A stretch of 41,655 bases of DNA. It comes from Syntrophobacterales bacterium. GTDB lineage: Bacteria; Desulfobacterota; Syntrophobacteria; BM002. Positions within the stretch are counted from its first letter, which is position 1. Every line of letters begins with the position of its first letter. Positions 13,559-38,116 of the stretch are shown here, in pieces. The stretch lies in contig JASFGC010000001.1 in NCBI GenBank assembly GCA_050123975.1, positions 1 to 41,655 on the forward strand. The letters run 5' to 3'. Under the pieces are notes generated by a model, which saw nothing but the letters and a program-made list of their open reading frames with translations, searched no databases and had not been told where the DNA came from. The translations under genes and the position numbers were made by a program.

Positions 13559-15238
13559 GTGGAAGAAACAACCAGAGCTCATAAGGCGAGGCTGGCAATC
13601 AGAACATTCAAGATCGTTGCTGATGCTCTCTTTTTGAGGGGAAGTTATGCCCTGGGGGGAAAGTCCGGCCAGGCACTGGAAGATGCACTGCGAACCCTCA
13701 GCCCCGAAATCTACGGAAGCATGAATGACCCAAAGAGTATCGAACTCAAAGGGCTGGAGTACATTCTGGACAGACTCCCGAGGGGCATCGAAGAATGTCA
13801 TCGATTTGTCTTGACCGCGAAAGAAGATCTGGATGGCACCTCGTTTGAGAAAATCCAACCACCCAAGCGAAGAAGGATTTCCTATCGTGTTAGTGAGAAC
13901 GAAATGTGTTTTGTTATCACCCGGGGTTCCAGTGAGATCTACGACATCCTCACCCATATGACCTTTCTCTACCTAGAAGCGAAAAAGCTGCATGACCGCA
14001 TGAGAGATGACAGTGGCAATCCAACCATAGAATGGAGAGAGCTTGAAAAGATCGTTGGTTCGGGGGCTGACTTAAGCGGTAAGGACCTGGATCGAGCAAT
14101 CTGGAGCTTGAGCGTTCTTCTTGGTAGGCCTTACCATGAAACTAAGGAGACCTATGAATATTTTGAAAATAGCAGAACCAAAGCGAACGCCAATAACGGT
14201 CTTTTCAGTATTGTCTATAACCTTGGGAAACGTGTGGAGGATGAGCGAGAGAATAACGACATGTTCACAGTATACTTCACCCCTTCTCTCATAGATGTAA
14301 TGCTGCATCAAGTATACTGTAAGAGATGGGCTGCATCGATTAAAGATGCAATATGGAACCTTGGACTCCAGAATCGTCCTTTGCACATCATCAGCGCAAA
14401 CATGCACAGCGTATTGAATCTGTTATACGGTTACGGTGCAGTGAAAGATGAACAAAAGAAAAAAGACAGTGAAGAACTCTATACCTTTATTCAAGATATC
14501 AGTGATGAAGCAGGACTGATAAAAGAGTATGCGGCAAAGCACGGTTTCAATGAGCTGCCGGACAAAAGTGGAGCCCAGATTGATTGTCAACTCATTGATA
14601 CTGCCATGCTCGAATCCGTTGATTTTCACCCCGCAATAGCTGTGGACAAGAACCGTCTTTTTAGCGAGAAACCGGTGCTCTTAGTCATGGACTATGCTTT
14701 CGGGACCCAGGCATTCTCAGCCATGGATGAGCTTCTTCGACCTTGGGAAGAAGAAGACTCTCAGCGAATGCTCAATGTACATTCCGTCTCGGTGATGGGA
14801 AAAGCAGGCATCCTACCCGGACAGAAGGGGGACATCATGCTGGCATCCGCCCACGTGCTCGAGGGGGTGCCTCACACCTACATTGTAGAAAATGATCTGA
14901 GCAGAGAAAATTTCGACGACTCCGCGAACGTTTACGTTGGGCCCATAGTTACTGTTCTCGGCACTTCACTTCAGAACAAAGATGTTCTCGAAATGTTCCA
15001 AACCACGACCTGGAGGGCGGTTGGCTTAGAGATGGAGGGTGGCCACTACCAACGCGCGGTGGATGCTGCAATAGTTCGTGAGCACATCTCAAAAGACGTC
15101 AAGGTGAGATATGCCTACTATGCTTCGGATAACCCGCTCAAGAGCGGCCAGACCCTTGCTGCAGGCCCCCTGGGGAAAGAAGGTATTCGACCCACCTACA
15201 TGATAACCAAGGCCATTTTAAAGAAAATACTTACGTAA
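13559..15238 (+). CDS. unknown protein with a C-terminal nucleoside-phosphorylase (PNP_UDP_1 / AMP-nucleosidase-like) fold and a ~330-aa uncharacterised N-terminal region
   Basis: The C-terminal blocks are VLLVMDYAFGTQA, VSVMGKAGIL..GDIMLASAHVLEG, VGPIVTVLGT and AVGLEMEGGHY. They line up in order with the remembered E. coli Amn blocks ITLVNIGVGPSNA, MIGHCGGL..GDYVLAHAYL, TGTVVTTDD and AVAIDMESA. GTG start with GAGGGA upstream. Confidence 0.45.
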   Translation: MEETTRAHKARLAIRTFKIVADALFLRGSYALGGKSGQALEDALRTLSPEIYGSMNDPKSIELKGLEYILDRLPRGIEECHRFVLTAKEDLDGTSFEKIQPPKRRRISYRVSENEMCFVITRGSSEIYDILTHMTFLYLEAKKLHDRMRDDSGNPTIEWRELEKIVGSGADLSGKDLDRAIWSLSVLLGRPYHETKETYEYFENSRTKANANNGLFSIVYNLGKRVEDERENNDMFTVYFTPSLIDVMLHQVYCKRWAASIKDAIWNLGLQNRPLHIISANMHSVLNLLYGYGAVKDEQKKKDSEELYTFIQDISDEAGLIKEYAAKHGFNELPDKSGAQIDCQLIDTAMLESVDFHPAIAVDKNRLFSEKPVLLVMDYAFGTQAFSAMDELLRPWEEEDSQRMLNVHSVSVMGKAGILPGQKGDIMLASAHVLEGVPHTYIVENDLSRENFDDSANVYVGPIVTVLGTSLQNKDVLEMFQTTTWRAVGLEMEGGHYQRAVDAAIVREHISKDVKVRYAYYASDNPLKSGQTLAAGPLGKEGIRPTYMITKAILKKILT

Positions 15239-16933: not shown

Positions 16934-19078
16934 ATGGATGAGGTCCAGAGAATGAGCGAAACAGCTGCACTCATTGACAAGGTTAAGAATGGTTTCCAGG
17001 CATTGGACGTTTCGGTTGAACATCAACGTGAAGCTCTGAAATGGCTCGAGATCTGGCTGACTGACGATATCTTTCGTGATTACGTCCCGCAAATAACCTA
17101 TCTGATTGAATCGGAGAAGTGGAATTTCTTACTGGACTCTTTTTATCAGGTCATTCCCTTTGGTACCGGCGGCAGGAGAGGGTTGGTCGGCATTGGTCCC
17201 AATAGGATCAATCCCTGGACCATCCAAGCCTCCGCCCAAGGCCATGCCCAGTATCTCATCAACCAGCATGGAAAAGAGGCGCAAGAAAGAGGGGTGGTCC
17301 TCAGCTATGATGTGAGGCAATACACTCAGAGAGGAGTGTATGACGACAGCCTTGCCAATCCAATCATGAATCTGGACGGTCCTCAATTGGCAGAAGCGGC
17401 AGCGGCAGTGTATGCTGCCAACGGTATAAAAGTGTATATCTTTGATGGTGCCAGGAGCACGCCGGCCCTCTCCTTCGCCATACGTCACCTGAATGCTGTC
17501 TCAGGAGACATGTTCAGCGCCAGCCATAACCTGCCTACCGATAACGGCAAGAAAGTGTACGACCAACATGGCGGCCAGTTAATACCACCAGACGATCAGA
17601 TTCTGGTTGATGAAGTGACCAAAAATGTCAAAGAAATAAAGATTATGAATTTCGGCGAAGCAAAGGAGAAGGGGTTAATTTCATATGTCGGTGAAGAAGT
17701 TGATATGGCCTTTCTGGAGGCTATCTGTAACATTTCTCTCTCCGAAGAGAGGGGCGTAGACATATCGTATGCTCCTCTCCACGGCACCGGGCTGAGTTCC
17801 ATCTATCCGGCCTTACAAAAGCTCGGATTTAACGTCACCCTCGATGCGCGAACATCCAACCTGAGTGGTAATTTCGAAAACGTCACCTTCAACATACCAA
17901 ATCCGGAAGTGATTGAATCATTTGAAACTTCTATTCCCTTTGCTCAAGAAATCAATGCTGATCTCATCATTAGTTCTGATCCCGACGCAGACAGAATTGG
18001 CGTCATGGCCAGGCATCATGATTCATATGAGTTTGTCAACGGCAATGAAATCGGCATAGTGTTAACCAATTACGTTATCTCCAAGTACAAAGCCAAGGGA
18101 ATTTTAAACCCAAACAGTGTGGTCATAAAAACAGGAGTAACCACCTCATTAATAGAAGGAATTGCGCAAGAAAATAACATTCACTGCATCGGCGATCTCT
18201 TGGTTGGTTTTAAGTATATCGGCGATGAAATGAACAAGCTCGAGAACGATGGAAGAATTCAGGATTTCATTATCGGCGCCGAAGAGAGTCACGGTATTCT
18301 GACCGGAGATTATTGTCGAGATAAAGATGCGGCAGGCGCCGCTGTCTGGATAGCTGAACTGGCTGCTGAATTGAAAAAAGATGGCAAAACATTAATCGAC
18401 TATCTCGATGAAATCTACTGCAAGTATGGCTATTGCCATAATTACTTGACTGAGATCAGGCTCTTGGGTGCCAAGGGCATGGAACAGATTGCGGACATCA
18501 TGACCCATCTCAGGGATAATCCAGTTGAATCTTTTGGCGAATTTTTTGTGCAAGAAAAAATCGATCGTTGGCAAGGCGAACCTCAGCCCCATCTATCCAT
18601 CACCGATACCGCCTCGAGAAATGTTCTGATATTCAAGATTGACAGACTACCAGATACTAAATCCATCAAAGTTACCGTTCGCCCATCAGGGACTGAACCA
18701 AAAATAAAAATGTACTTTGAAGTGTATGGTGAACCCTGTGATTTAAAGAATATTGATGCTGAAAAGCAGAAAATCGTCGAGATGAGAAACAGATTGGAAA
18801 GAGCGTTCATGCTCTATTGCTATAGAATATTAGGCGTTGATTTTCCGGAAAGAGGTTTTTTGTTGTTTTGGCAGTTACCGCTCAATGACAAGCTGAAATA
18901 TTTTGAAACAGAAGAAGAAATCATTCAGTTAAAAAACATTCAAGATCTAGAAACCAGAAAAAAAGAGCTCTATGACCTGCTTGAATTCCTCGGTGCCGAC
19001 CCGATTGCAAAAGTGAATGATGCCTTCAAGGAAAAGTATAAGAAAAGCATACATGAATATTTAGATATAGTGCGATAG
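16934..19078 (+). CDS. alpha-D-phosphohexomutase family protein (phosphoglucomutase/phosphomannomutase-like), long form
   Basis: FGTGGRRG loop, active-site Ser block FSASHNLPTDNGKKVY, metal loop SSDPDADR, and EESHG. An alternative start lies at 16952. The ~100-aa C-terminal extension is unassigned. Confidence 0.8.
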   Translation: MDEVQRMSETAALIDKVKNGFQALDVSVEHQREALKWLEIWLTDDIFRDYVPQITYLIESEKWNFLLDSFYQVIPFGTGGRRGLVGIGPNRINPWTIQASAQGHAQYLINQHGKEAQERGVVLSYDVRQYTQRGVYDDSLANPIMNLDGPQLAEAAAAVYAANGIKVYIFDGARSTPALSFAIRHLNAVSGDMFSASHNLPTDNGKKVYDQHGGQLIPPDDQILVDEVTKNVKEIKIMNFGEAKEKGLISYVGEEVDMAFLEAICNISLSEERGVDISYAPLHGTGLSSIYPALQKLGFNVTLDARTSNLSGNFENVTFNIPNPEVIESFETSIPFAQEINADLIISSDPDADRIGVMARHHDSYEFVNGNEIGIVLTNYVISKYKAKGILNPNSVVIKTGVTTSLIEGIAQENNIHCIGDLLVGFKYIGDEMNKLENDGRIQDFIIGAEESHGILTGDYCRDKDAAGAAVWIAELAAELKKDGKTLIDYLDEIYCKYGYCHNYLTEIRLLGAKGMEQIADIMTHLRDNPVESFGEFFVQEKIDRWQGEPQPHLSITDTASRNVLIFKIDRLPDTKSIKVTVRPSGTEPKIKMYFEVYGEPCDLKNIDAEKQKIVEMRNRLERAFMLYCYRILGVDFPERGFLLFWQLPLNDKLKYFETEEEIIQLKNIQDLETRKKELYDLLEFLGADPIAKVNDAFKEKYKKSIHEYLDIVR

Positions 19079-19229: not shown

Positions 19230-19949
19230 GTGATGAGTGAGGTAGGTATGGACGCAGACGAAAAAACGTGTCTTCCCTTCAGCCGGGTCTGCTTTAGGGA
19301 AAGATTTTCAGGTCTGCTCATCTTCATCATGGCTATTCTTATCCTTGGACCTCTCGTTGATGAGTTTGTCCAAATACGTATCTTCATAGACATCCTTTGG
19401 ACTGCTGTTTTTGCATCCGCCATTTATGCAGTCAGCCAAAAGAAACATCATATCATTATTGCCGTACTGCTTGCTCTGCCCATGCTGGGGGGATTATGGT
19501 CCAGACATTTTGTGGGGCATCACTCTCTGCAGGTAGTGGGTTACCTGTGCGGAGCTGCCTTTATTCTTTTTGCAATTATTCAGATGCTGATCTTTATCTA
19601 TAGTCACAAGGAGGTCACCAGAGATCTTATCATCGGTGCGGCGGTAGTCTATTTGCTCATGGCCATAATGTGGACATTCGTTTTCATCGTTGTGGAGACA
19701 CTTCACCCCGGCTCATTTAACCTCCCAGAGGGTCAGAGTATAGAGACCGGCGAACATTTTATTTACTTTAGCTTTGTCACTTTAACCACCCTGGGCTACG
19801 GTGACATTACCCCCGTGACGAGACTGGCAAGAAATTTGTGTACTCTCGAGGCAGTGATCGGCCAACTCTACCTGGTAGTGCAGGTTGCCTGGCTGGTGGG
19901 TGTCCATGTTTCCCAATCAATGCTGAAGAGAGCCGGACGGGATGATTGA
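19230..19949 (+). CDS. potassium channel family protein (multi-TM N-terminus + pore loop)
   Basis: Selectivity filter TLTTLGYGDITP, flanked by hydrophobic helices. Confidence 0.8.
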   Translation: MMSEVGMDADEKTCLPFSRVCFRERFSGLLIFIMAILILGPLVDEFVQIRIFIDILWTAVFASAIYAVSQKKHHIIIAVLLALPMLGGLWSRHFVGHHSLQVVGYLCGAAFILFAIIQMLIFIYSHKEVTRDLIIGAAVVYLLMAIMWTFVFIVVETLHPGSFNLPEGQSIETGEHFIYFSFVTLTTLGYGDITPVTRLARNLCTLEAVIGQLYLVVQVAWLVGVHVSQSMLKRAGRDD

Positions 19950-22583: not shown

Positions 22584-23639
22584 CTAGAAAACCTGAATAT
22601 TGCCGGCGTCCACTTCGGCGATTACATGCTGGATACGGTCCCAAAGAGCATCGATCTCCGCTTTTGAAAGACCGTATTGCAGTATTCCATCTTTGTACTT
22701 CGCACCCACTTTGGGGTCCAGGTTCTTCCCCACCGGTTTCGGTTGCAGAACTCCATTCTGATCTAATTCAAACTGGACTATCACGGCCAGGAAATTCAGG
22801 TCCTGCCGTTGTATCTTTCGCAACCGCTCGATGGAATTTTTGCGCAGCGCCGGCACATGAATGTCTTCCCACTGCTGAATGAAAAAATTGTATGGCCAGA
22901 AACCAAAGGAAATGCCGTTGTCAATGGAGAATACCTGACGCCGCTTGTCGTCCTTTGAAACCAGGAATTGCCCCACCCGGTTATCGCGGTGTTGGATTAG
23001 GTAGGTGAGAAGGTTAAAGTTGGACATAAAGTAGGCGTAGGTAGGATCCTTAAGAAAGCGCGACTCATCGTACAATGTGTCGGGAACTGTGACGTCCTTC
23101 ATCCATATGGAAGCAAGACCCAAAACGCAATCCGTTCCCTCCAGGGTCGCAGCAGCATACCCACCCCTCTTCATAAACCTATCACGGGATATGCAGACCG
23201 GTAGAGCAGTGGGCACCACGTAATCTTCGGGGTCCAGAAAAAACTTCTGCACATTATAAGCAGCAATCTCTTTACGCGGCGAGGTGTTGAAGCTGTCAAC
23301 CCAGCCCGGAACATTCTTTTTGAACTTCCACTTTATGTCCTTGCCGCTCACTGTGTCATGGTTGATGAGGACCAAGGCGCCGGTGGTACCACGTGCCGTC
23401 CTCTCCACCTCCTTGGCCTGTAATTTCCCTTCCACCCCTCTCTGGTATATCTTGGTCTCCAGCTCCTGGGGGGTGAACTGCCAGTTGGGAAATTCACCTT
23501 TGACACTGGGAGAGAGGGCTTTCTTGAATTGCAGTTGGCGGTCCTCGACCGTGCCCCTGCTAGCGCAACCTGCGAAAGACAAAATGAAGCCGAACAAAAG
23601 AATGAATAAAAGTCCGAACCGAAGTGCGCTCTTTTTCAT
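22584..23639 (-). CDS. lipoprotein with kinase-like catalytic motifs (PI3/PI4-kinase or protein-kinase-like)
   Basis: Signal peptide plus lipobox (LSFAGC). It has an HRD-type catalytic loop (YLIQHRDNRVGQFLV) and a DFG-equivalent (FSIDNGISFG) about 20 aa downstream. That arrangement recalls type II PI4K (..DR..N..L / IDNGLAF). The ORF itself is solid. The fold call is tentative. Confidence 0.4.
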   Translation of the reverse strand: MKKSALRFGLLFILLFGFILSFAGCASRGTVEDRQLQFKKALSPSVKGEFPNWQFTPQELETKIYQRGVEGKLQAKEVERTARGTTGALVLINHDTVSGKDIKWKFKKNVPGWVDSFNTSPRKEIAAYNVQKFFLDPEDYVVPTALPVCISRDRFMKRGGYAAATLEGTDCVLGLASIWMKDVTVPDTLYDESRFLKDPTYAYFMSNFNLLTYLIQHRDNRVGQFLVSKDDKRRQVFSIDNGISFGFWPYNFFIQQWEDIHVPALRKNSIERLRKIQRQDLNFLAVIVQFELDQNGVLQPKPVGKNLDPKVGAKYKDGILQYGLSKAEIDALWDRIQHVIAEVDAGNIQVF

Positions 23640-23962: not shown

Positions 23963-24010
23963 ACAGAAGATGTGGAACTAAAGGTGAACATCGTGTTGCA
24001 GAAGCATAAA

Positions 24011-25102
24011 ATGATCATCGTTAGGATTGTTGGCATCGTAACGCTATTGATAGTTACCTTGTCTTCTGTAAAAGCCCTTTCAAAGGACGATAACAGTGCT
24101 CCAGACAAACTGCTGGTGGCAGTTGTAGATGCGCCGCCCTTCTACATGAAGACGCCGGATGGGCGCTGGGAGGGCCTCAGCATCGAACTCTGGCAAGCGG
24201 TCGCTCAAGAGCTGGGTGTGGAATTCGAGCTACGAGAATACAGCTTCGAACAGTTGCGGAATGCTGTTACAAAAGACAAAGTTGACGTGATACCTGCAGT
24301 GGCTGTCACAGAGGAGCGCGAAATCATTATGGACTTAAGCCATCCCTTCCTCAGGTCGGGATCGGCCATAGCGGTAACGGCAGAAGCCACTGGGCACAGC
24401 TGGCTCCGCTTCGCAGGACATCTTTTTTCATTGAACATCCTGCCGGTGATTGGTCTCCTGCTCCTGCTGGCGCTGGTAGCCGGCACAATCGTGTGGTTAT
24501 TCGAGGCTCGCCGGAACCCCAAAATGTTCGGCGGCGGAACAGTGAGAGGAGTTGGACAGGGCATCTGGTGGGCTATAGTAACTCTGACCACCGTGGGTTA
24601 CGGAGACAAGGCGCCAAAAACGCTCGGCGGGCGAATGGTTGCGCTTATCTGGATGTTCGCCTCGATTATCCTGATCGCCAGCTTTACTGCCGCCATTACA
24701 ACCTCGTTCACCGTTGGTGAATTGAGAGGCAAGGTCCGTGGCCTGAGCGATCTACCCGATGTGCGAGTAGGCTCTTTGCCCCAAACGGCAAGCTCTAACT
24801 TTCTTGCTAAACGCGGGATCGCGGTTCGACCCTTTGAGAATTCGCGTGATGGTCTGCAGGCGATCGTTGATAAAAAAATCGACGCATTCGTTTTTAATGA
24901 ATCCATATTGAAACACCTCGCGAGAACCGAGTTTCCCGGCCGAGTGCATGTTCTACCCAGCACCTTCGATCATTACTACGTGAGCATGGCCTTGCCATCT
25001 GGCAGTCCGCTCCGGGAACTGCTCAACAGGGCCTTGCTCAAGATCATAACCCAGGACGACTGGCACAGGTTGGTGCAGAGCTATTTAGGTCGCGATCGTT
25101 GA
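24011..25102 (+). CDS. GluR0-like ligand-gated K+ channel (periplasmic binding-protein lobes S1/S2 interrupted by an M1-P-M2 pore)
   Basis: Signal sequence, then an SBP_bac_3-like lobe, M1, the pore TLTTVGYGDKAP, M2 and a second SBP lobe. The ATG at 24011 is preferred over the track's GTG at 23972. Confidence 0.8.
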   Translation: MIIVRIVGIVTLLIVTLSSVKALSKDDNSAPDKLLVAVVDAPPFYMKTPDGRWEGLSIELWQAVAQELGVEFELREYSFEQLRNAVTKDKVDVIPAVAVTEEREIIMDLSHPFLRSGSAIAVTAEATGHSWLRFAGHLFSLNILPVIGLLLLLALVAGTIVWLFEARRNPKMFGGGTVRGVGQGIWWAIVTLTTVGYGDKAPKTLGGRMVALIWMFASIILIASFTAAITTSFTVGELRGKVRGLSDLPDVRVGSLPQTASSNFLAKRGIAVRPFENSRDGLQAIVDKKIDAFVFNESILKHLARTEFPGRVHVLPSTFDHYYVSMALPSGSPLRELLNRALLKIITQDDWHRLVQSYLGRDR

Positions 25103-27178: not shown

Positions 27179-27194
27179 TGGCATCTCTGTTGCT
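27179..27194 (+). promoter_or_regulatory. sigma-54 (-24/-12) promoter TGGCATctctgTTGCT
   Basis: GG and GC are at canonical spacing. An IHF-like TTCAATATTTTA (27161-27172) ends 6 bp upstream. The USP ATG is ~65 nt downstream. Confidence 0.7.
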
Positions 27195-27259
27195 AAAAGA
27201 CTCAGGTGTCTGTGATCATTTGTTGTCCAGATTGCATGCGGTTTGACAGGAGAAAAGGT

Positions 27260-28195
27260 ATGGCTGAATTGAGCAAAATGATAGTCGTAGCCGTGGATGG
27301 TTCCGAAAATGCTCTCAAATCCTTAGATTATTTAGGTCTGCTTTACGGAGCCAAGCCGAGCCTGGAGATCGTTCTCCTTTACGTATTACCTACTTTGCCC
27401 CCGATCCTCGTTGCTGATGATGACCGCCAAAGCAAGTTAAGACTGCTGGCTGTCGAAAAGAAAAGCATCCAGATGGCTGAGCGTATTCTTTCTGAGGCAA
27501 AGAACCTCCTCCGCAAGAAAGGTTTTAAGGATGAACACATTCGGTCATTGCATCGGAAAAAGCAGATGGGCATAGCCCGGGATATATGCAACTTGGCAGA
27601 TGAAAAGAGGGCAGACAGTGTGCTCATCAGTGCGAAAGGTAGAAGCAAACTGGAGGCTTTTTTCTCCGGAGGGGTGGCAAACAGAATGCTAGAGTATTGC
27701 CGTGTCTGTCCAGTGTGGCTAGTGGAGGGTACGGTCAAATCAAAAAAGGTGCTCATCGCCATGGATGGCTCAGCAAACGCTCTCAGAGCAGCAGACCATG
27801 CTGCTTTTATGCTTTCTGGAACCGACTGTCAAGTGGCTCTGTTTCACTCTAAACGACATTTGAGACGTTTTGTACCTCAGGAGATAATTGAGGCAGCGCC
27901 AGAACTGGTAGAACTCTGGAAAAATAAGGCGGGAGAGCAGATCGCGCCGTACATGAAAAAGGCGAATGAAATGCTTCTGGAAGCAGGCATCCCTGAGGCT
28001 CAAATAAAGACCAAGGTGGTTGACGGAAGCAGGGATGCTGCCAGCGATATCCTCAAGGAAGCTAAGAGCAACGACTATGGAACTGTGGTTTTAGGACGAC
28101 GAGGTCACTCAGGTGTAAAGGAATTTTTCATGGGCAGTGTCACCAGTAAGGTTCTCCAAGACTTTGCTGGTAGGGCTGTTTGGCTTGTGCAATAG
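27260..28195 (+). CDS. tandem universal stress protein (two UspA domains)
   Basis: Two copies of the pattern VAVDGSENA ... (G.RG.S....F.GSV...V) ... V.LV. The ATG at 27260 with an AGGAGAAAAGG RBS is preferred over the track start at 27206. Confidence 0.85.
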   Translation: MAELSKMIVVAVDGSENALKSLDYLGLLYGAKPSLEIVLLYVLPTLPPILVADDDRQSKLRLLAVEKKSIQMAERILSEAKNLLRKKGFKDEHIRSLHRKKQMGIARDICNLADEKRADSVLISAKGRSKLEAFFSGGVANRMLEYCRVCPVWLVEGTVKSKKVLIAMDGSANALRAADHAAFMLSGTDCQVALFHSKRHLRRFVPQEIIEAAPELVELWKNKAGEQIAPYMKKANEMLLEAGIPEAQIKTKVVDGSRDAASDILKEAKSNDYGTVVLGRRGHSGVKEFFMGSVTSKVLQDFAGRAVWLVQ

Positions 28196-28268: not shown

Positions 28269-28868
28269 ATGAAAAGGTCGGTTGTTTATGTTGTCGGTTT
28301 GGTTTTCTTGGCGTTGTGCTCAATGGCTGGCGCAAAATCTCCTGGTACTGTTGGACCATTCGGTTTCGCCATAGGGAAAACCTCATATGAAGAGGTTTTA
28401 AATGTTGCCCAGCAGCGCAATTGGCGATATCAGGAATACGAGAAAAGACACTTTAAGCCGATAAGTAAGAAAGATCCTGCTCGTGGTAAGAACACTTTTG
28501 TAAGAGCAACACCCAAGGGTATTGAGGGGGTCAGAAGCATCCTGATATTTTTTAATGGCGAATCAACCCTTGATGCAGTGATCGTCATTTTGGATCCCAA
28601 GTTGTTTGAAGACGTTTACCAGCAGCTGGATGCTAAATACAAACTTGTCCAAAAAAGCTTGAAGGGTGAATATCTCTCTACCGATTATCCCTATGCGTTA
28701 TGGCAAAAAGATAATGTCTACATTGAATTACAGAAAGCTAGCCCTTATCGGACAAGATTAGTGTATGTTGAAAAAGCAGTGTACGTGAACTACCGAGATT
28801 TTCTAAACAAGCATTATCCACGGTTTCGGCACACTCAAGAGAAAAGAGGCTGGATGGACGAACTGTGA
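28269..28868 (+). CDS. secreted hypothetical protein
   Basis: ATG at 28269 preceded by AAGGGAGG. Signal peptide MKRSVVYVVGLVFLALCSMAGA. No family recognised. Confidence 0.55.
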   Translation: MKRSVVYVVGLVFLALCSMAGAKSPGTVGPFGFAIGKTSYEEVLNVAQQRNWRYQEYEKRHFKPISKKDPARGKNTFVRATPKGIEGVRSILIFFNGESTLDAVIVILDPKLFEDVYQQLDAKYKLVQKSLKGEYLSTDYPYALWQKDNVYIELQKASPYRTRLVYVEKAVYVNYRDFLNKHYPRFRHTQEKRGWMDEL

Positions 28869-28900
28869 CTAGCGTTACTCATCTTGGAAGTGTGAGCCTA

Positions 28901-30346
28901 TCAAGGGCGAGACTTAACCGTTATTAAGACCTCAACATCCGGCCATTTTTTGTCTGCTGGTTGTACCTTGGGAGGCGCCACTATTTTCTTGGAGAGATTA
29001 ACATCTTTCTTGATGCTCTCCAGATAAACTGGCTCGGTCATTAAAGTGGTTCTTTGCTCCAAGTCACTTGCCGGGGCCAATATCTTTACTTGTTTCGGTT
29101 CCACAGTTACCGATACCAATTCCAAACCTTCGGGCAGAGTGCCCACCAGTTGTGGCTGTACCTCTACCACAGTCTCCACTATTTCCTCCAACGACACTGC
29201 TACGCTGGAAGGGGTTGCACCCACCAGTTTTACGCTTCTTGGGAGCAACACATTCTTTTCTGACATGACAAGAACCTGTCTCCCTGCCAAAGCCTCGGAC
29301 AAGTCAATCCTGGTACTTAAATTCAGAGGAGTTATATCATCGAGATTTGACTTCGGCCCTGTCAAATGCAGTTTGATTTCAGTCGGCTGGTCACCCGCAA
29401 GTGCAAGGTGCTTGGGGATACCAATGTATTCGATAGGAACGGTGAAAGCTTTTTCCCTTATCTCCATCTGTCCCAGAATAACACTTGACCAGACGACAAG
29501 AGCGACAATGAGACTGAAACCGATTTGAGCAATCAACTCTCGAGTCTTCATTGTTTTGGGCACTTCGATGCCGTGAAAAGCAATAGTTTCCCAGTGAGAG
29601 ATCAATTGTGTGGATAGGTCGCTCCTGTCATGGACTCTCTGGGGTTTTCCGTCGCGAAAGAGAGTAATGACCCCCCTTTCTTCCGAGACTACCACCACCA
29701 AAGCGTCCGATACTTCAGAAAGTCCAATTGCTGCGTGATGCCTGGTGCCGAAATCATTGGACAGCTTGCCCGTTTTCGATAAAGGAAGACGCACGCCGAA
29801 TTGAGTGAGTCTGCCGCCATCAATGATCAGGGCACCATCATGGCCAGGTGAATTGGGATCGAAGATACTCATGATAAGTGGATACGTGGGGGTAGCATTG
29901 AGACCCACACCGCCGGAGAGCCATCTCTCGATCGGTTCTTTACCAGGCACTACGAATATTGCCCCCCTTTTTTTCTCAGCTAAAGAGAAGGCAGTATCAA
30001 CTATGACCATGACCAAGTCTGTATGATCTCTGCCTCGCCCCCGCCCTCTAAAAGACGCTGCACTTTCGAATACCTTTCTGATTTCGGGCTGAAAAAGGAC
30101 AATCAATCCGATCAGCGCAACTTGGCTCAGATTTGAAAAAAGCCAGAGAATTCCTTTGAGGTCTAAAATGTTGGCGGCAACGAAGATAGCAATGGCCAGG
30201 AATATTCCCACCACGATTTTCCAAGCACCCAACCTGTGCAGCGTGCGATACAAGAGAAACAATGCGGCTGCCAACAGGAGAATGTCTAAAAACACCCTCC
30301 AGTCGAGCATGAGCTTGATCATTTTGAAAGTATTCAACTTCGCCAC
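28901..30346 (-). CDS. cdaA: diadenylate cyclase CdaA fused to a CdaR-like YbbR-repeat extracytoplasmic region
   Basis: It has three N-terminal TM helices and a DAC domain (LFQPEIRK, GHDGALIIDG, FGTRHHAAIGLSE, VVVVSEERGVITL). A fourth TM follows, then ~190 aa with YbbR-like beta repeats (IEYIGIP..L, V.V.LEE, V.V.PK.V.I). Confidence 0.85.
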   Translation of the reverse strand: MAKLNTFKMIKLMLDWRVFLDILLLAAALFLLYRTLHRLGAWKIVVGIFLAIAIFVAANILDLKGILWLFSNLSQVALIGLIVLFQPEIRKVFESAASFRGRGRGRDHTDLVMVIVDTAFSLAEKKRGAIFVVPGKEPIERWLSGGVGLNATPTYPLIMSIFDPNSPGHDGALIIDGGRLTQFGVRLPLSKTGKLSNDFGTRHHAAIGLSEVSDALVVVVSEERGVITLFRDGKPQRVHDRSDLSTQLISHWETIAFHGIEVPKTMKTRELIAQIGFSLIVALVVWSSVILGQMEIREKAFTVPIEYIGIPKHLALAGDQPTEIKLHLTGPKSNLDDITPLNLSTRIDLSEALAGRQVLVMSEKNVLLPRSVKLVGATPSSVAVSLEEIVETVVEVQPQLVGTLPEGLELVSVTVEPKQVKILAPASDLEQRTTLMTEPVYLESIKKDVNLSKKIVAPPKVQPADKKWPDVEVLITVKSRP

Positions 30347-30355
30347 CTCTATTGG

Positions 30356-31654
30356 TTACTTTACCAGCAAGGGCATAAAGATTACAGCAAAACCCAAGAA
30401 CGAGGCGAATCCGACACAGTCAGTCACGGTGGTGAGAAAAATTGATGAGGACTGTGCCGGGTCGCGGTTGAGGGCTTTCAATATGAGAGGGATGGTTGCT
30501 CCTGAAAGACCGGCCGCCACCATATTGACGATCATGGACAAAAAAATCACCAATGCAAGACCATAGTTTTTGCTCCAAACCCAGACAGCTCCAGCGGTAC
30601 CCACCGCAACTGCTATGCCATTAAACAGGCCTGCGAGAACTTCTTTCACGATAACCCGCTTGGCAGCGCCAGAAATGATTTCGTGAAGAGCCAAGCCGCG
30701 CATAACCACGGCCAGGGCTTGGGCTCCCGTGTTTCCTCCCTGACCGGAGACAATTGGGAGAAGCACAGCCAGGGCGGTTACCTTTTGGATGGTACCCTCA
30801 AACGCACCCACCACCGCTGCTGCCAGGAAAGCGGTCAATAAGTTTACGTATAGCCAGGGTAAGCGACGTTTTACCACAGTCGAAACCGGTGAAAGAGCGC
30901 GCTCGTCACCTCCAGCACCAACCATTTTCTGGAGATCCTCAAATGCTTCCAATTGACCGGCGCGCAGTGCTTCATCGTGTTTGATCACGCCCACAAGCCG
31001 ACCATCACTATCAACAACCGGTAGGGCAAGAAAGCGGTGCCTGCGTATAAGGGTGATAACCTCTTCCCGGGTCATGGTCTCGGGTACGCTGAGAATTTCC
31101 CGGTGAATCAGGGACTCTATTTTATCCTGTGGGGGTGCGAGCATGAGTTCGCGCATATTGAGGACGCCAGCCAATTTCCCATCGCTGTCAGTCACATACA
31201 AATAAAACAAGCTCTGACGTGGGGCTTTGCGTAAGTAAGCAGCCGCAGCTTTGACGGTCAGGTCCATTGGTATGGCAGCTACTCGCGGTTCCATCATTCC
31301 GCCTGCAGTATCCGGCGAATAATGCATGAGGTCACGGAGTTGCCTCGCTACACGATCTGAAAGCTTTGACAGAGCGTCTTCCCTACTGCTCTGTTCAAGA
31401 TGCTGAAGTATCATGGACGCTGTTCTCGGCGGCATGTTCTCCAGCAATTCCCTGACACGAGATGGATCTAGATTTTCTAGGATAGCGGCAGCAATATGAG
31501 GTCGGAGACGCTCCAGCAAAAGTCCGATGGCTCTGAATGGTAGCTTTTTTACGATCCCGACAGCTTCACTGATATCCAGCTGTTCTAAAGCATGTGCTGC
31601 ATCTTTGGGGTGGCTTTCCACAAATTGTCGAACAAGCAATTGAGCCGTTTCCAT
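30356..31654 (-). CDS. mgtE: magnesium transporter MgtE
   Basis: MgtE N-domain, CBS pair, and a C-terminal TM domain with SGQGGNTGAQ and DPA..SSIFLTTVTD motifs. It ends 9 bp before the cdaA start. Confidence 0.92.
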   Translation of the reverse strand: METAQLLVRQFVESHPKDAAHALEQLDISEAVGIVKKLPFRAIGLLLERLRPHIAAAILENLDPSRVRELLENMPPRTASMILQHLEQSSREDALSKLSDRVARQLRDLMHYSPDTAGGMMEPRVAAIPMDLTVKAAAAYLRKAPRQSLFYLYVTDSDGKLAGVLNMRELMLAPPQDKIESLIHREILSVPETMTREEVITLIRRHRFLALPVVDSDGRLVGVIKHDEALRAGQLEAFEDLQKMVGAGGDERALSPVSTVVKRRLPWLYVNLLTAFLAAAVVGAFEGTIQKVTALAVLLPIVSGQGGNTGAQALAVVMRGLALHEIISGAAKRVIVKEVLAGLFNGIAVAVGTAGAVWVWSKNYGLALVIFLSMIVNMVAAGLSGATIPLILKALNRDPAQSSSIFLTTVTDCVGFASFLGFAVIFMPLLVK

Positions 31655-31764
31655 TCAAGCTGTCCTTTCACCGAAAAAATGTTTCTGCCAATATGCCATC
31701 ACCGAAGCATTCTTTTCAGCGTGGGTCGTCGCAGGGTATGCCGTGCGCATTGATCTTTGCTTTT

Positions 31765-32814
31765 TCAATCTTCTGTCTTTTTAGGCGCAGATCGTTTGTG
31801 CTTACGCTTGCGCGCCAACTTTTGTAGGTCCACTACTTTGTCAGTCTCGTCCACGATTTCGGCACCCAGCACAGTCTCCAACAGATCTTCCAAAGTGATG
31901 AGGCCCGCCACCCCACCATACTCATCCTCTACGATGGACATATGGCTGCGTTTTTTTAAGAAGCGGTTCAACAATGCCAGACAATTTGTCTCTTCCCGTA
32001 CGAAAGAAATAGGCTTGACAATGGAAGACAGGAGCATATCGGGCTCGCTCATTATTCCGGCACAGCCGAGGTCATGGATCATGACATAGCCCAGTACGTT
32101 GTCTTTGTCCTCGCCATGGACAGGGATGCGAGTAAAACCCTTACCACTTGCAGCTTGAAGTGCTTCCCCGATTGTCATTTCAGCATTCAGGCTAAACATC
32201 ACTTTTCGAGGGGTCATGACCTCACGAACCTCTGTATTTTCCAGCTTTATGATATTGTGGACCATGAGGCTTTCCCACTCAGTGATTTCACCTTCTTTGG
32301 CTCCCAAACGAATGGACCCCAAGATGTCTTCCTCAGTGATTCGGGCAGGCGGACGGCCACGGGTGAGAAAAGCAGAGAACTTCTCGGTGATCCAAATTAA
32401 GGGGTAGAGAGGATACTTCATTGCAGTCAGAGGCCAGACAATCACAGGCCAGAGATTACGCCAATAAACAGCACCCATGGTTTTGGGAATGATCTCGGCA
32501 AAGAAGAGGATAGCGAGAGTGAATATAATAGAAAAAATAGGAACCAAGCCCACTCCTAATGTTTTGTGGGCATACATCCCCGCGATGGTAGCTCCCGCAG
32601 TGTTGGCGATGGTGTTCAGAATGAGTATCGCCGCAATGGGCTCGGAGATCTGTTTTTTCAACTGAATCATCTTTAAAGCCATCTGTCTTGTCTTCGATTT
32701 GGATTTTGCAGCTTCCAATGTCCCCAGGCGGGTGGAATACAACGTGGCTTCATACAGTGAGCATTGTGCTGAAATAAAGATGGTTAGAAACACAACAAAA
32801 AACAGGATAGACAT
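31765..32814 (-). CDS. CNNM/CorC-type transporter (DUF21 membrane domain + CBS pair, no CorC_HlyC C-domain)
   Basis: DUF21 helices (ILILNTIANTAGA, FAEIIPK), then a CBS pair (V.EVMTPR ... IVEDEYGGVAGLITLEDLLE). Confidence 0.85.
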   Translation of the reverse strand: MSILFFVVFLTIFISAQCSLYEATLYSTRLGTLEAAKSKSKTRQMALKMIQLKKQISEPIAAILILNTIANTAGATIAGMYAHKTLGVGLVPIFSIIFTLAILFFAEIIPKTMGAVYWRNLWPVIVWPLTAMKYPLYPLIWITEKFSAFLTRGRPPARITEEDILGSIRLGAKEGEITEWESLMVHNIIKLENTEVREVMTPRKVMFSLNAEMTIGEALQAASGKGFTRIPVHGEDKDNVLGYVMIHDLGCAGIMSEPDMLLSSIVKPISFVREETNCLALLNRFLKKRSHMSIVEDEYGGVAGLITLEDLLETVLGAEIVDETDKVVDLQKLARKRKHKRSAPKKTED

Positions 32815-32842
32815 TGATGTCTCCTTTTCTACTTCTGCTTCT

Positions 32843-33823
32843 TTATTTGAACTGTTTGATTACAAAACGGCCCAAGCTGGCTGGGTCATCTTTTTCAAGG
32901 TGCTTCGCTAAATTGGCCAAAGGAATTTCAGCACGGGCCCTGGCCCGATGCCCGCCTGCTGTACCCAAGCGGCCAAAGGCCCTGGCTGCCCTGGTGCCGG
33001 CGTTTTTGCGGAAACCATGATTGCGGATAATCACCACCAGCGTTTTCTTGTACACACCAGAGACTATAACCCAATCGATCTCATGTAATCTCAGGAAGAA
33101 GTCCGCGACAAGTACGAGATTATCCGGCGACTGGACCTGACCGAGGTGACTGAAGATTTTCCCCTCGATAATCTTTTTGTTTGCGAGGGCCAGTTGGAAA
33201 TATTCTAGGTCCTCTGCCCCCATGTCGGCTGCTTCGATCTTTCGCAGCAGATTCATATCAGCGTGAGAGAAAAGATATCGAAAGGCCTTTATGTCCTCTT
33301 CTGCCACACCTGACTCAAAATTACCGGTGTCCACCCGGATGGCAAAAAGAAGGGCAGTAGCCAGGCTTTTGGAGGGGCGTATCCTGGCTGCCCGCAGATA
33401 CTCTGTCATCATAGTGGCTGTAGCCCCGTAATCTGGCCGTATGTCCAGAAACGGAGCCCCGAGTGAAGTTGTTCGGGGATGGTGGTCAATAACCACGTCA
33501 TAGTCAAAATCGGCGTAAGCTTCGTTGTGGTCGGGCTGGCCGTCCACCAAGACAGTCTTTGAAAAGCTGGAACCGTCCACCCGGTGCAAGCGCTCGAGGG
33601 GGATCTTGAGAAGCCTGATCATTGTCACGTTGTCGTATCGATTGATTTCGTTGAAATGAGCGATGGTCACTGACTGAACTTTGCGCCAGAGGAGACGCTT
33701 GAGGGCCAAGGCCGATGCCAGGGCGTCAGGGTCGGCCCAAATGGTTATGAGAACATTGTCCTTAGAGTTAAACTGGCTGAGAAGCTCTCGCAGACGACCC
33801 TGCCTTGATCTTGTTGGAGACAT
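32843..33823 (-). CDS. DHH/DHHA1 family phosphoesterase (NrnA-like)
   Basis: Motifs ADPDALASA, VLVDGQP, VVIDHHP, DTGNF, and the DHHA1 motif GTAGGH. Confidence 0.8.
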   Translation of the reverse strand: MSPTRSRQGRLRELLSQFNSKDNVLITIWADPDALASALALKRLLWRKVQSVTIAHFNEINRYDNVTMIRLLKIPLERLHRVDGSSFSKTVLVDGQPDHNEAYADFDYDVVIDHHPRTTSLGAPFLDIRPDYGATATMMTEYLRAARIRPSKSLATALLFAIRVDTGNFESGVAEEDIKAFRYLFSHADMNLLRKIEAADMGAEDLEYFQLALANKKIIEGKIFSHLGQVQSPDNLVLVADFFLRLHEIDWVIVSGVYKKTLVVIIRNHGFRKNAGTRAARAFGRLGTAGGHRARARAEIPLANLAKHLEKDDPASLGRFVIKQFK

Positions 33824-33849
33824 TGTTGTACCTCAAGGGTCAGAGAGTA

Positions 33850-34083
33850 TCAGGAGTCTCTCAAATGATCAAATTCCTGGGGCGAGTGAGGGGATGATCC
33901 CAGAGCACCTTCCCGTAGATCAGCCACCCCGATAATGTGGCCGTGGAAGTGCTTCAGGCTCTGTTCTTCCAGAAACTGGATGAGAGACTTACAGTCTGAG
34001 CCCCCTCCCACCAAGGCAACATTAATGCATGAGGACTGCGTCTCAGCCTGAACCGTCGAATGTGTTTTCTCGACAATTTGCAT
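33850..34083 (-). CDS. small ORF (77 aa), possibly a remnant of a Rossmann-like N-terminus of a larger gene
   Basis: ATG with AGAGGA 7 nt upstream. VALVGGGSDCKSL resembles a GxGxxG N-terminus. There is no downstream continuation. Confidence 0.25.
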   Translation of the reverse strand: MQIVEKTHSTVQAETQSSCINVALVGGGSDCKSLIQFLEEQSLKHFHGHIIGVADLREGALGSSPHSPQEFDHLRDS

Positions 34084-34137
34084 GATGATCCTCTATCTTT
34101 AAAGGAATCTCGCCCGTATTGGTCTTTTCTATCTGAT

Positions 34138-34168
34138 AGAAAAGCGGGCTTTGGTGCCCGCTTTTCCC
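34138..34168 (-). terminator. rho-independent terminator after hsp20 (potentially bidirectional)
   Basis: agcgggc-tttggt-gcccgct (34143-34162), flanked by an A-run on one side and a T-run on the other. Confidence 0.7.
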
Positions 34169-34191
34169 TTTGTCGAAGTGGACTAGTAACC

Positions 34192-34647
34192 TTAGGCGGC
34201 CTTGACCTCGATCTTCTTGACGGCCTCAGGGGCAGTCTTGGGCATACTGATGCTGAGTACCCCGTCCTTGTAGTTGGCCTTGATTTTGTCTGTTTTCACT
34301 TCCACAGGCAATTGCACTGTCCTCGAAAAGGAGCCGGAGCCGCGCTCAACCAGGTGGAAGTTTTCTTTTTTCTCCTCGCGCTCGTGTTTGCGCTCGCCCT
34401 TGATGGTCAGCACCTTTCCGCTCAAGGAGATGTCAATCTCTTTTGGATCCATTCCCGGCAGTTCAGCCCTGACCACTAGCTCCTTGTCAGTCTCGGACAC
34501 ATCCACCGAAGGCATCCACCTTCCGGTCTCTGAGACACCGCGAAACGGCCACGCTTCCGAGAACATGTCGAAAAGCCGATCCATCTCGCGACGCATCTGG
34601 GTGAGGCCCCAGTCCTCTCCTTTTCTCCAACGGATCAAATCTGTCAT
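34192..34647 (-). CDS. Hsp20/alpha-crystallin small heat-shock protein
   Basis: The alpha-crystallin domain includes PSVDVSETDKELVVRAELPG, GVLSISMPK and a C-terminal I-x-V. Confidence 0.92.
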   Translation of the reverse strand: MTDLIRWRKGEDWGLTQMRREMDRLFDMFSEAWPFRGVSETGRWMPSVDVSETDKELVVRAELPGMDPKEIDISLSGKVLTIKGERKHEREEKKENFHLVERGSGSFSRTVQLPVEVKTDKIKANYKDGVLSISMPKTAPEAVKKIEVKAA

Positions 34648-36957: not shown

Positions 36958-37075
36958 CATTACAAGAGATAGCGAAGAACCGCTGGGAGGAAGAAAGGGA
37001 AAAGAAGATTGATTTAAAATCATTTTTAGATTATTCACGCTCTAATCTATTGAATTTTGGGTGAGGGAGAAGCTG

Positions 37076-38116
37076 ATGAGCTCCGAGCTTGACTCTTTAA
37101 AAGACCAATTTTGGCAACCGAGTTCCTTGGCAGTAATTCAAACCAAAAACTCCACCATGCAAACGGTCTTCGCCAAAATCCGCTCTGTGGCGCCGACCAA
37201 GAGTACCGTTTTACTAACAGGTGAGACCGGAACAGGCAAAGGTGTGCTTGCGAATCTCATTCATCAACACAGCAATCGCAGGGATGCCAAGTTTGTCAGC
37301 GTTCACTGCGGCGCGATCCCAGACACACTCTTGGAAAGCGAACTGTTCGGGCATGAGAAGGGGGCCTTCACAGGTGCCGACAGAAGAAAGCTGGGAAAAT
37401 TCGAAATCTCCAAAGGGGGAACGATTTTTCTGGATGAGATCGGTACCATTACACCGGCTGCACAGATAAAGCTCTTGCAGGTACTGCAGGATGGGACTTT
37501 TCAGCGAGTAGGTGGTGAAGCGACCTTCAATGCCGATGTGCGAGTAATAGCGGCCAGTAATATGGATCTCGAAGAAATGTGTGACAATGGCCACTTTAGA
37601 AAGGACCTCTATTTCCGCTTGAACGTCTTTCCCGTGGAAATTCCACCCCTAAGGGAGAGAAAAGAAGACATCCCTCATATTGTGGAAGTTATTATAGGCA
37701 GGCTCAATAAATTTCACCTCAAAGAAATTCGCGACATCCACCCGGATGTAATGGAAGGATTTCTCAATTACTCCTGGCCGGGAAACATACGAGAACTGGA
37801 AAATCTCATGGAACGAGCGTACATTCTTGAAAGCTCATCTACATTGACGCCGGAAAGTTTTCCCTTGGAACTGCTTACCTTAGAGGCTCCATCGGCGCAG
37901 ATGGGGTTGGATTCTTCATTTACCTTGGCTGAGGTCAGACGAAGAGCCTTGGAGGAAGTTGAGAAGCGCTACCTGAAGGAGCTCCTTGCAGGCCAAAAAG
38001 GGAAAATACGAGAGTCGGCAGAGGTCGCCGGCATTACCACCCGCCAATTGCACAAGTTGCTCACAAAATACGGGATTAAGAAGGAGGACTTCAAGTCCCG
38101 TACCAGCCATCAATAG
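37076..38116 (+). CDS. sigma-54-dependent transcriptional activator (bEBP) lacking an N-terminal sensory/receiver domain (PspF-like architecture)
   Basis: Walker A LLTGETGTGKG lies ~50 aa from the start. The hallmark GAFTGA loop is present (EKGAFTGADRRK), as is Walker B TIFLDEIG. The C-terminal Fis-type HTH is SAEVAGITTRQLHKLLTKYGI. ATG at 37076 (the track's GTG is at 37061). Confidence 0.9.
   Translation: MSSELDSLKDQFWQPSSLAVIQTKNSTMQTVFAKIRSVAPTKSTVLLTGETGTGKGVLANLIHQHSNRRDAKFVSVHCGAIPDTLLESELFGHEKGAFTGADRRKLGKFEISKGGTIFLDEIGTITPAAQIKLLQVLQDGTFQRVGGEATFNADVRVIAASNMDLEEMCDNGHFRKDLYFRLNVFPVEIPPLRERKEDIPHIVEVIIGRLNKFHLKEIRDIHPDVMEGFLNYSWPGNIRELENLMERAYILESSSTLTPESFPLELLTLEAPSAQMGLDSSFTLAEVRRRALEEVEKRYLKELLAGQKGKIRESAEVAGITTRQLHKLLTKYGIKKEDFKSRTSHQ

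Follow-up and report, generated by a model that had tools for sequence, protein, structure and literature searches.

Cyclic di-AMP (c-di-AMP) is the master signal for K+ and osmolyte balance. In the Firmicutes Bacillus subtilis, Listeria monocytogenes, and Staphylococcus aureus, the membrane cyclase CdaA is encoded in a cdaA-cdaR-glmM operon, together with its YbbR-type partner CdaR and with GlmM, which regulates CdaA. The YbbR domains of CdaR face outward (PMC10636490). We analysed a window (the whole stretch of DNA under study) of 41,655 nt on contig JASFGC010000001.1 of a Syntrophobacterales bacterium of the sulfate-reducer type, where a membrane CdaA with a YbbR partner, also predicted to face outward, again stands in an operon-like cluster with regulators. 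The cluster differs from that of Firmicutes in that CdaR is fused to CdaA, with two detectable YbbR domains instead of the four in B. subtilis CdaR, and in that there is no glmM, the operon partners being a putative phosphodiesterase of the DHH/DHHA1 family and two presumed Mg2+ transporters, MgtE and a protein of the CNNM type.

A connection between c-di-AMP and magnesium has been reported before. In B. subtilis, MgtE is in the list of c-di-AMP targets, with its functional effect marked "?" (PMC10636490; PMC8844918), the regulation of the CNNM-type MpfA by c-di-AMP "remains to be determined", and the levels of c-di-AMP and Mg2+ drop and recover together during osmoadaptation (both PMC8844918). 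In Synechocystis, a c-di-AMP pull-down recovered MgtE, which was described as a conserved target (PMC8654305), and a Borrelia turicatae strain deleted for cdaA acquired a missense (suppressor) mutation in mgtE (PMC8316131). The transporters of our cluster belong to the same two families as the Mg2+ importer MgtE and the Mg2+ exporter MpfA of B. subtilis and have the same CBS modules. In B. subtilis, however, the mgtE, mpfA, and c-di-AMP genes are dispersed and mgtE is under an M-box riboswitch, whereas in the window the transporters are clustered with the c-di-AMP enzymes and there is no riboswitch. Neither a cdaA-mgtE neighbourhood nor the present operon is described in the literature searched (Gundlach 2019 and Galperin 2023 lay outside its scope).

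The cluster consists of four consecutive open reading frames (ORFs) on the minus strand (28901-33823; Table 1), which encode, in transcription order, the DHH protein, the CNNM protein, MgtE, and the CdaA::YbbR fusion. The gaps between them are 28, 110, and 9 bp, the last of which widens to 18 bp should translation of cdaA begin at TTG 30337. The four same-strand genes with short gaps of the preliminary description are thus borne out. The four proteins and the flanking hypotheticals have consecutive NCBI accessions in at least four metagenome-assembled genomes (MAGs) of one Syntrophobacterales species. Hence, the arrangement is reproducible and no assembly artefact: the cluster is real and operon-like. 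The identities of its components are secure; all four earlier gene assignments were recovered with Pfam or NCBIfam models, although the DHHA1 half of the phosphoesterase is undetected by Pfam and appears as a fold in the AlphaFold model, and although the CNNM protein has no CorC_HlyC domain, which is usual at the C-terminus of such transporters.

We lean, without great confidence, towards a reading in which the writer and the eraser of c-di-AMP are co-expressed with MgtE and CNNM, and c-di-AMP acts on the CBS module of MgtE and perhaps on that of CNNM. A single transcription unit, starting at a sigma-70-like promoter and insulated from hsp20 by a strong terminator, would co-express the four proteins. 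The membrane cyclase, a CdaA fused to its usual partner module (CdaR/YbbR), would make c-di-AMP; the DHH/DHHA1 phosphodiesterase would remove c-di-AMP and/or its product pApA; and the MgtE channel and the short CNNM, most likely an exporter, would move Mg2+. Bound to the cytoplasmic CBS modules of MgtE, and perhaps to those of CNNM, c-di-AMP would then set Mg2+ flux too. Writer, eraser, and targets encoded on one transcript would stay in proportion. We infer the direction of regulation and any action on CNNM, and we carry over the binding of c-di-AMP to MgtE from other organisms. An action of c-di-AMP on the CBS modules had already been proposed from the sequence of this locus; for MgtE the idea is not new, binding having been reported elsewhere, and it is the CNNM part that goes beyond the literature.

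The evidence for a functional link comes first from gene neighbourhoods in other lineages. We used two sets of comparison loci (numbered with the prefix L): 80 loci anchored on cdaA, from species-representative genomes, with GroEL and Hsp20 as controls, and 38 metagenome loci anchored on MgtE, many of them on short contigs. In the first set, four loci have mgtE next to a co-directional cdaA, either gene coming first and 3-22 bp lying between them: L005 (Desulfobacterota), L017 (Phycisphaeraceae, Phycisphaerae), and L020 and L030 (Spirochaetales). The MgtE orthologs that adjoin cdaA in other lineages are 54-77% identical to ours. A DHH homolog adjoins cdaA in four further loci (L010, L019, L021, and L027, from Desulfobacterota, Planctomycetota, and Verrucomicrobiota), and each control occurs in a single locus, never adjoining cdaA. 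Among the MgtE-anchored loci, 16 contain at least one partner (cdaA in 9, CNNM in 7, DHH in 4), in at least four permutations; in L091, it is a different cdaA paralog, not the fusion, that adjoins the orthologous mgtE. One spirochaetal locus, L030, has on one strand CNNM, a RimK-like enzyme fused to TrkA_C, cdaA, and mgtE.

The linkage of the cluster's gene families therefore far exceeds that of the control genes, and the varied orders, orientations, and cdaA paralogs argue for a repeated, selected association. A real functional link of c-di-AMP enzymes with MgtE and CNNM is backed by the persistence of this linkage despite reshuffling, in several phyla and with two cdaA paralogs. The synteny suggested earlier as a check thus gave a divided answer: the exact order is not conserved beyond one species, and the linkage of cdaA with mgtE, CNNM, and DHH recurs in reshuffled form.

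The cyclase is a divergent fusion. Pfam recognises the domains CdaA_N (PF19293, 33.7 bits), DAC (PF02457, 112.8 bits), and two copies of YbbR (58.7 bits). Hydropathy analysis reveals N-terminal helices at residues 18-36 and 44-62 and a further membrane helix at residues 272-290, between the DAC and YbbR domains; the DAC domain is predicted to be cytoplasmic and the two YbbR domains extracytoplasmic, the layout one would expect of CdaA joined to its regulator CdaR. The protein is 100% identical to P0001, a Syntrophobacterales MAG protein annotated as diadenylate cyclase, whose length of 478 aa makes the TTG at 30337 the likely true start. It scores under the equivalog cut-off of TIGR00159 (151.3 vs 188.8 bits). 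Of its catalytic motifs, HDGA is present and the "RHR" position reads RHH, as it does in 111 of the 120 closest homologs. Outside Firmicutes, many CdaA genes have A, S, T, F, or Y as the third residue; RHH therefore looks like a natural variant, which we treat as a clade trait of a putative cyclase. The cluster has no separate gene for a CdaR-type protein, the YbbR domains being fused to CdaA, and no glmM. Relatives also have another cdaA paralog, about 394 aa long, that shows the canonical RHR and lacks YbbR (L082 6016-7203, L089 14619-15803, and L091 1577-2740), which in L082 and L089 adjoins an 894-aa protein of the acetyl-CoA-synthetase/acetyltransferase type. The window itself encodes, about 10 kb from cdaA (16934-19078, plus strand), an unusually long (714 aa) protein of the phosphoglucomutase/phosphomannomutase family, to which GlmM belongs.

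MgtE has the complete architecture of its family (MgtE_N, two CBS, and MgtE domains) and scores above the cut-off of TIGR00400 (272.6 vs 232.75 bits). It aligns over its full length with the Thermus thermophilus protein (E 1e-58), with "tDcvG" aligned to "sDvtG", whose shared Asp we take to be the Mg2+ site of the pore.

The CNNM protein is a short member of its family, with the DUF21/CNNM membrane domain (PF01595, 93.1 bits) and two CBS domains (50 bits). The Pfam scan found no C-terminal CorC_HlyC domain, in which it differs from B. subtilis MpfA; the protein has a basic C-terminal tail. Its closest solved relative is a protein deposited as "Hemolysin, contains CBS domains" (entries 7m1t/7m1u, E 2e-35). 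Scores were far under the cut-offs of all NCBIfam equivalogs (GldE 133 vs 376, PaeA 94 vs 500, CorC 88 vs 379), and the substrate is therefore not assigned to a named equivalog; the weak match to PaeA, a polyamine-exporter model, recalls that the substrates of the CNNM family are not Mg2+ alone. The protein is likely, as a candidate, an Mg2+ exporter. Its gene behaves as an insertion-deletion cassette. The 28-bp spacing between DHH and CNNM is identical in a closely related locus, L088, and two other relatives (L107 and L125) go from DHH directly to mgtE.

The DHH protein was proposed in the preliminary description as a candidate degrading enzyme for c-di-AMP or pApA, and this proves credible. 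Pfam detects the DHH domain (PF01368, 36 bits), and its DHHA1 model gives no match. Motifs I-IV (DxD, D, DHH, D) are present as D31 and D33, D94, D113-H114-H115, and D165, all invariant in 34 homologs, as is H99; the DHHA1 motif reads AGG[H/R] instead of GGGH, 20 of these 34 having H and 14 having R. The AlphaFold (AF2) model (predicted local distance difference test, pLDDT, 80.9) has a complete two-domain fold, for which the top Foldseek matches are the catalytic domain of GdpP (E 7e-18, about 335 aligned columns), TmPDE, Pde2, DhhP, Rv2837c, and NrnA. The protein thus has the same full-length two-domain fold and the same DHH metal-binding motifs as DhhP of Borrelia, Pde2 and NrnA of S. aureus, Rv2837c/CnpB, TmPDE, and the GdpP catalytic domain. 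It differs from the solved enzymes in being only 15-20% identical to them and in its undetected DHHA1 domain and altered GGGH motif; c-di-AMP and pApA are its predicted substrates.

Its relatives add to this picture. A search of 1.84 billion representative sequences returned 406 relatives at E <= 1e-30. Of the top 150, 62 measure 440 aa or more and have an additional N-terminal module of about 135 residues, which matched TrkA_N in 4 of the 10 long relatives scanned (two strong matches, two marginal); homologs with this TrkA_N-fused architecture are 34-45% identical to the window protein. The architecture TrkA_N-DHH-DHHA1 is that of PyaPDE, a characterised archaeal c-di-AMP phosphodiesterase (Jin et al. 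2023; PMC12699388), and many homologs share it. The window protein itself has no TrkA_N. Judged by fold, invariant residues, and these relatives, the DHH protein is a credible candidate for a c-di-AMP/pApA phosphodiesterase, and the subfamily may well supply this activity in lineages without an assigned one.

Could this protein instead be a housekeeping nanoRNase or pAp phosphatase of the NrnA kind, with no specific part in c-di-AMP turnover? The COG label given by JGI is broad enough for both ("nanoRNase/pAp phosphatase (c-di-AMP/oligoRNAs hydrolase)"), NrnA structures are among the fold matches, and sequence and fold cannot assign the substrate. We nevertheless consider a housekeeping role improbable. 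Homologs adjoin cdaA in the Desulfobacterota, Planctomycetota, and Verrucomicrobiota loci given above, 5-7 kb separate the gene from cdaA in L082 and L089, many members of the subfamily have the TrkA_N domain of the archaeal enzyme, and the top fold matches are c-di-AMP/pApA enzymes.

The upstream boundary of the unit is an intrinsic terminator behind hsp20 with a 12-bp stem, a 6-nt loop, and a U-run (-21.8 kcal/mol, z = -6.3, 0 of 200 shuffled sequences folding as well); it was read from the sequence and is absent from the output of the consensus scan. About 20-50 nt 5' of the DHH start codon is a sigma-70-like promoter candidate, with a -35 TTGATC (33872-33867), a 17-nt spacer, and an extended -10 TG-n-TACTCT (hexamer 33849-33844). 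This element was found by eye and scores below the threshold of that scan. It is kept in L088 and L087 (TTGACC ... TGATACTCT) and, as seen in the alignment, partly in L089 and L082, even though the genes upstream of it differ in all four loci. We infer that it functions as a promoter.

Downstream of this element, nothing was found that would divide the cluster. The consensus scan gave no coding-strand terminator between its genes, and the 110-nt spacer between CNNM and mgtE has no terminator-like structure (fold z = 0.04 relative to shuffled sequences). The window has no Rfam match at the gathering threshold, which speaks against riboswitch control, and nothing relevant appears at E <= 1 within 28700-34300, including the c-di-AMP (ydaO/kimA class) and M-box riboswitches. 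DNA conservation 5' of mgtE and of cdaA ends about 20 nt or less from the start codons; hence, neither gene seems to carry a conserved promoter of its own, and the 9-18 bp between mgtE and cdaA leave no space for an intergenic one. The lack of internal terminators and riboswitches, the short mgtE-cdaA gap, and the lack of own promoters make one DHH-CNNM-mgtE-cdaA transcript the simplest arrangement. The operon claimed in the preliminary description is thus plausible as a single transcription unit, given the terminator, the promoter-like element, and the gaps, with co-transcription itself deduced. Two further candidate elements were rejected: a structured RNA or terminator 3' of cdaA (fold z = -0.35, no better than shuffled) and a sigma-54 promoter for the cluster (208 consensus matches in the window against 190 +/- 15 expected by chance, none of them well placed).

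Table 1. Position and supporting evidence of the cluster genes and adjacent elements in the window.
Feature	Position	Strand	Size	Evidence
Stand-alone DHH/DHHA1 phosphoesterase, candidate c-di-AMP and/or pApA phosphodiesterase	32843..33823	-	326 aa	Pfam, AF2 fold, catalytic residues
Short CNNM/CorB-type transporter, candidate Mg2+ exporter	31765..32814	-	349 aa	Pfam CNNM and two CBS
CNNM-mgtE spacer	31655..31764	-	110 nt	Fold, Rfam, DNA alignment to L088
MgtE Mg2+ channel (N domain, CBS pair, membrane pore domain)	30356..31654	-	432 aa	TIGR00400
CdaA::YbbR fusion	28901..30346	-	481 aa	Pfam CdaA_N, DAC, two YbbR
hsp20 intrinsic terminator, upstream boundary of the unit	34138..34167	-		RNA fold
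Sigma-70-like promoter candidate	33844..33872	-		Read by eye, conserved in relatives
Hypothetical ORF between terminator and DHH gene	33850..34083	-	77 aa	ORF; no Pfam match

The exact four-gene order was found only in MAGs of one Syntrophobacterales species; it is absent from the close relatives CP070692 (CdaA ortholog 79% identical), L085, L086, and the P0018 contig. The most informative relative is L088, whose DHH, CNNM, and MgtE proteins are 86%, 91%, and 82% identical to those of the window. Its order is mgtE paralog, MscS, DHH, CNNM, DUF2238, hypothetical, nhaA, mgtE, DUF2062, phosphorylase, and glycosyltransferase, so that all the cluster genes but cdaA lie within about 7 kb. The run DUF2062-phosphorylase-glycosyltransferase precedes cdaA in another relative, and we therefore expect the cdaA of L088 just past the end of the locus. 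At the DNA level, the window matches L088 except that it lacks some 3.3 kb (DUF2238, hypothetical, and nhaA) that separate CNNM from mgtE there: homology goes through CNNM to 31665 and restarts at 31668 with mgtE. Other relatives have mgtE-CNNM-cdaA (L116), DHH-CNNM-mgtE (L117), or DHH-mgtE (L107 and L125); mgtE and cdaA are 1.1 kb apart in L086 and L118, and L084 has cdaA, 0.7 kb, CNNM, 2.6 kb, and mgtE. In several relatives mgtE looks damaged: it is frameshifted in L084 (13752-15049), L114, L116, and L125, and L126 retains only its 3' end, joined to CNNM-mgtE spacer sequence. All of these cases may reflect assembly errors or real pseudogenes.

Several points weigh against a dedicated c-di-AMP/Mg2+ unit. 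As regards gene order, the complete genome CP070692 has no partner genes near cdaA, which is flanked by glycogen genes on one side and by PHO4 and nitrogen-regulation genes on the other. Relatives with CdaA identities of 84-85% have PHO4-PhoU-CBS, or TrkA-Usp with an Na+/H+ exchanger, beside cdaA. The cluster is itself a mosaic, its nearest counterparts being L088 for DHH-CNNM, L084 for mgtE, and L116 for cdaA. It was seemingly compacted by deletion or recombination, so that the adjacency could be partly a historical accident. The control gene GroEL also recurs near mgtE in L095, L096, and L121, which means that some of the recurrences may be inherited synteny. As regards the proteins, the cyclase has RHH in place of RHR, the DHHA1 motif of the DHH protein is non-canonical, and the CNNM substrate is uncertain. 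The literature searched reports no c-di-AMP binding to any CNNM, and the effect of c-di-AMP on MgtE is not established even in B. subtilis. As regards transcription, the co-transcription of the four genes is deduced from sequence, and the -10 hexamer of the promoter candidate is weak (three of six consensus matches).

Taken to its end, this line of argument leads to neutral adjacency, with deletions and recombination having chanced to join four unrelated genes in one species. The clean difference of about 3.3 kb from L088 at the CNNM-mgtE junction would fit such a history, as would the CNNM cassette, the mosaic identity across the cluster, and the unlinked 79% CdaA ortholog. Chance joining does not account for a linkage that recurs across several phyla, with either gene order and two cdaA paralogs, and that is seen in 16 of the 38 MgtE-anchored loci, nor for controls that never adjoin cdaA in the cdaA-anchored set. 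It is disfavoured on these grounds, and we give it little credence. The earlier statement that c-di-AMP is "hard-wired" to Mg2+ in this organism is overstated, the exact operon being confined to one species and orthologs of 79-85% identity being placed elsewhere; the linkage behind it is real.

A broader explanation is that the cluster belongs to a gene island for ion and osmotic stress. Its genes would take part in a shared stress response in which c-di-AMP acts on K+ and osmolyte transporters, with no direct binding to the Mg2+ transporters. The surroundings of cdaA and DHH in relatives offer material for this idea (MscS, NhaA, Na_Ca_ex, an Na+/H+ exchanger with TrkA_N-TrkA_C-Usp, and PHO4-PhoU-CBS), and the window adds USP genes and two genes of the K+-channel type. 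We regard the stress island as rather unlikely. Binding of c-di-AMP to MgtE has been reported from two phyla that are far apart, and mgtE is directly adjacent to and co-oriented with cdaA in unrelated lineages, which is tighter than island membership.

One can also turn the arrow round, from metal to c-di-AMP, with MgtE and CNNM setting the local Mg2+, Co2+, or Mn2+ for the cyclase and the DHH enzyme. Enzymes of the DAC and DHH types need divalent metals, the use of Mn2+ or Co2+ by CdaA is mentioned in the literature (PMC12974146), and proteins of the MgtE family can transport several divalent ions, Co2+ among them. Cytoplasmic Mg2+, however, is abundant and not locally supplied, and a supply of cofactors would leave unexplained the CBS modules on both transporters and the reported binding of c-di-AMP to MgtE. 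We consider it very unlikely.

Independent evidence for an old and widespread connection between c-di-AMP and Mg2+ comes from the recurrent, reshuffled linkage in Gram-negative anaerobes, planctomycetes, and spirochaetes. This linkage lends genomic support to an already reported and poorly understood link between c-di-AMP and magnesium balance. The locus also names concrete proteins: a compact MgtE, a minimal CNNM, and a natural CdaA-CdaR fusion for the control of the cyclase by YbbR. More tentatively, as a possibility that we would not call probable, c-di-AMP may be a direct allosteric ligand of both CNNM/CorB-type exporters and MgtE, with reciprocal control of efflux and influx. In that case, cdaA and mgtE, alone or accompanied by CNNM and DHH, would form a cross-phylum module, and the control of Mg2+ would be ancestral, not specific to Firmicutes.

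The neighbourhoods of the cluster genes in relatives contain further associations. PHO4, PhoU_div, and a stand-alone 134-aa CBS protein recur 3' of cdaA::ybbR in L082, L083, L085, L089, and the P0018 contig, and L081 has PHO4 only. A CBS-only protein beside the cyclase recalls the c-di-AMP receptors CbpB and DarB and hints at a link with phosphate transport. A TrkA_N-TrkA_C-Usp fusion followed by a transporter of the Na+/H+ exchanger family lies near cdaA in L086 (2776-5490) and in L082 and L083 (13554-16267). Binding of c-di-AMP has been reported for both the TrkA_C (RCK_C) and the USP fold. The RimK-like ATP-grasp protein with TrkA_C (RCK_C) that stands between CNNM and cdaA-mgtE in L030 (7185-8399) could be a c-di-AMP-regulated enzyme. 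Directly upstream of DHH, L087 and L088 (5013-8895) have a distant mgtE paralog (33% identity) and a 787-aa mechanosensitive channel of the MscS type; this proximity of MscS to the DHH gene parallels the dacZ-mscS2 operon of Haloferax volcanii (PMC12699388).

The 77-aa ORF between the terminator and the DHH gene is probably a decayed coding remnant outside the system. It has no Pfam match, forms a singleton protein cluster annotated as hypothetical, and contains a Rossmann-like stretch, "VALVGGGSDC"; its stop codon overlaps the promoter candidate. A 26-aa stretch of it matches an unannotated segment of L088 (4716-4793), upstream of the first mgtE of that locus. The shared DNA, approximately 90 nt, differs mostly at third codon positions, which points to the remnant of a coding sequence and speaks against a conserved RNA leader. 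The ORF is also not the decayed TrkA_N of an ancestral TrkA_N-DHH fusion, as it scored negative with a profile made from the 62 N-terminal modules.

The window holds other genes of interest. The two K+-channel-type genes are found at 19230-19949 and 23972-25102 (both plus strand), no more than 10 kb from the cluster; one has Ion_trans_2, and the other, with a solute-binding domain and Lig_chan, looks ligand-gated. A near-consensus sigma-54 promoter, TGGCATCTCTGTTGCT, with one mismatch (27179-27194, plus strand) stands directly 5' of a tandem-USP gene (27206-28195) that is convergent with cdaA, and the window also carries a gene for a sigma-54 activator (37061-38116). A 351-aa ORF without a Pfam match is at 22584-23639 (minus strand), and a 559-aa DUF6909 protein is encoded among glycolytic genes at 13559-15238 (plus strand).

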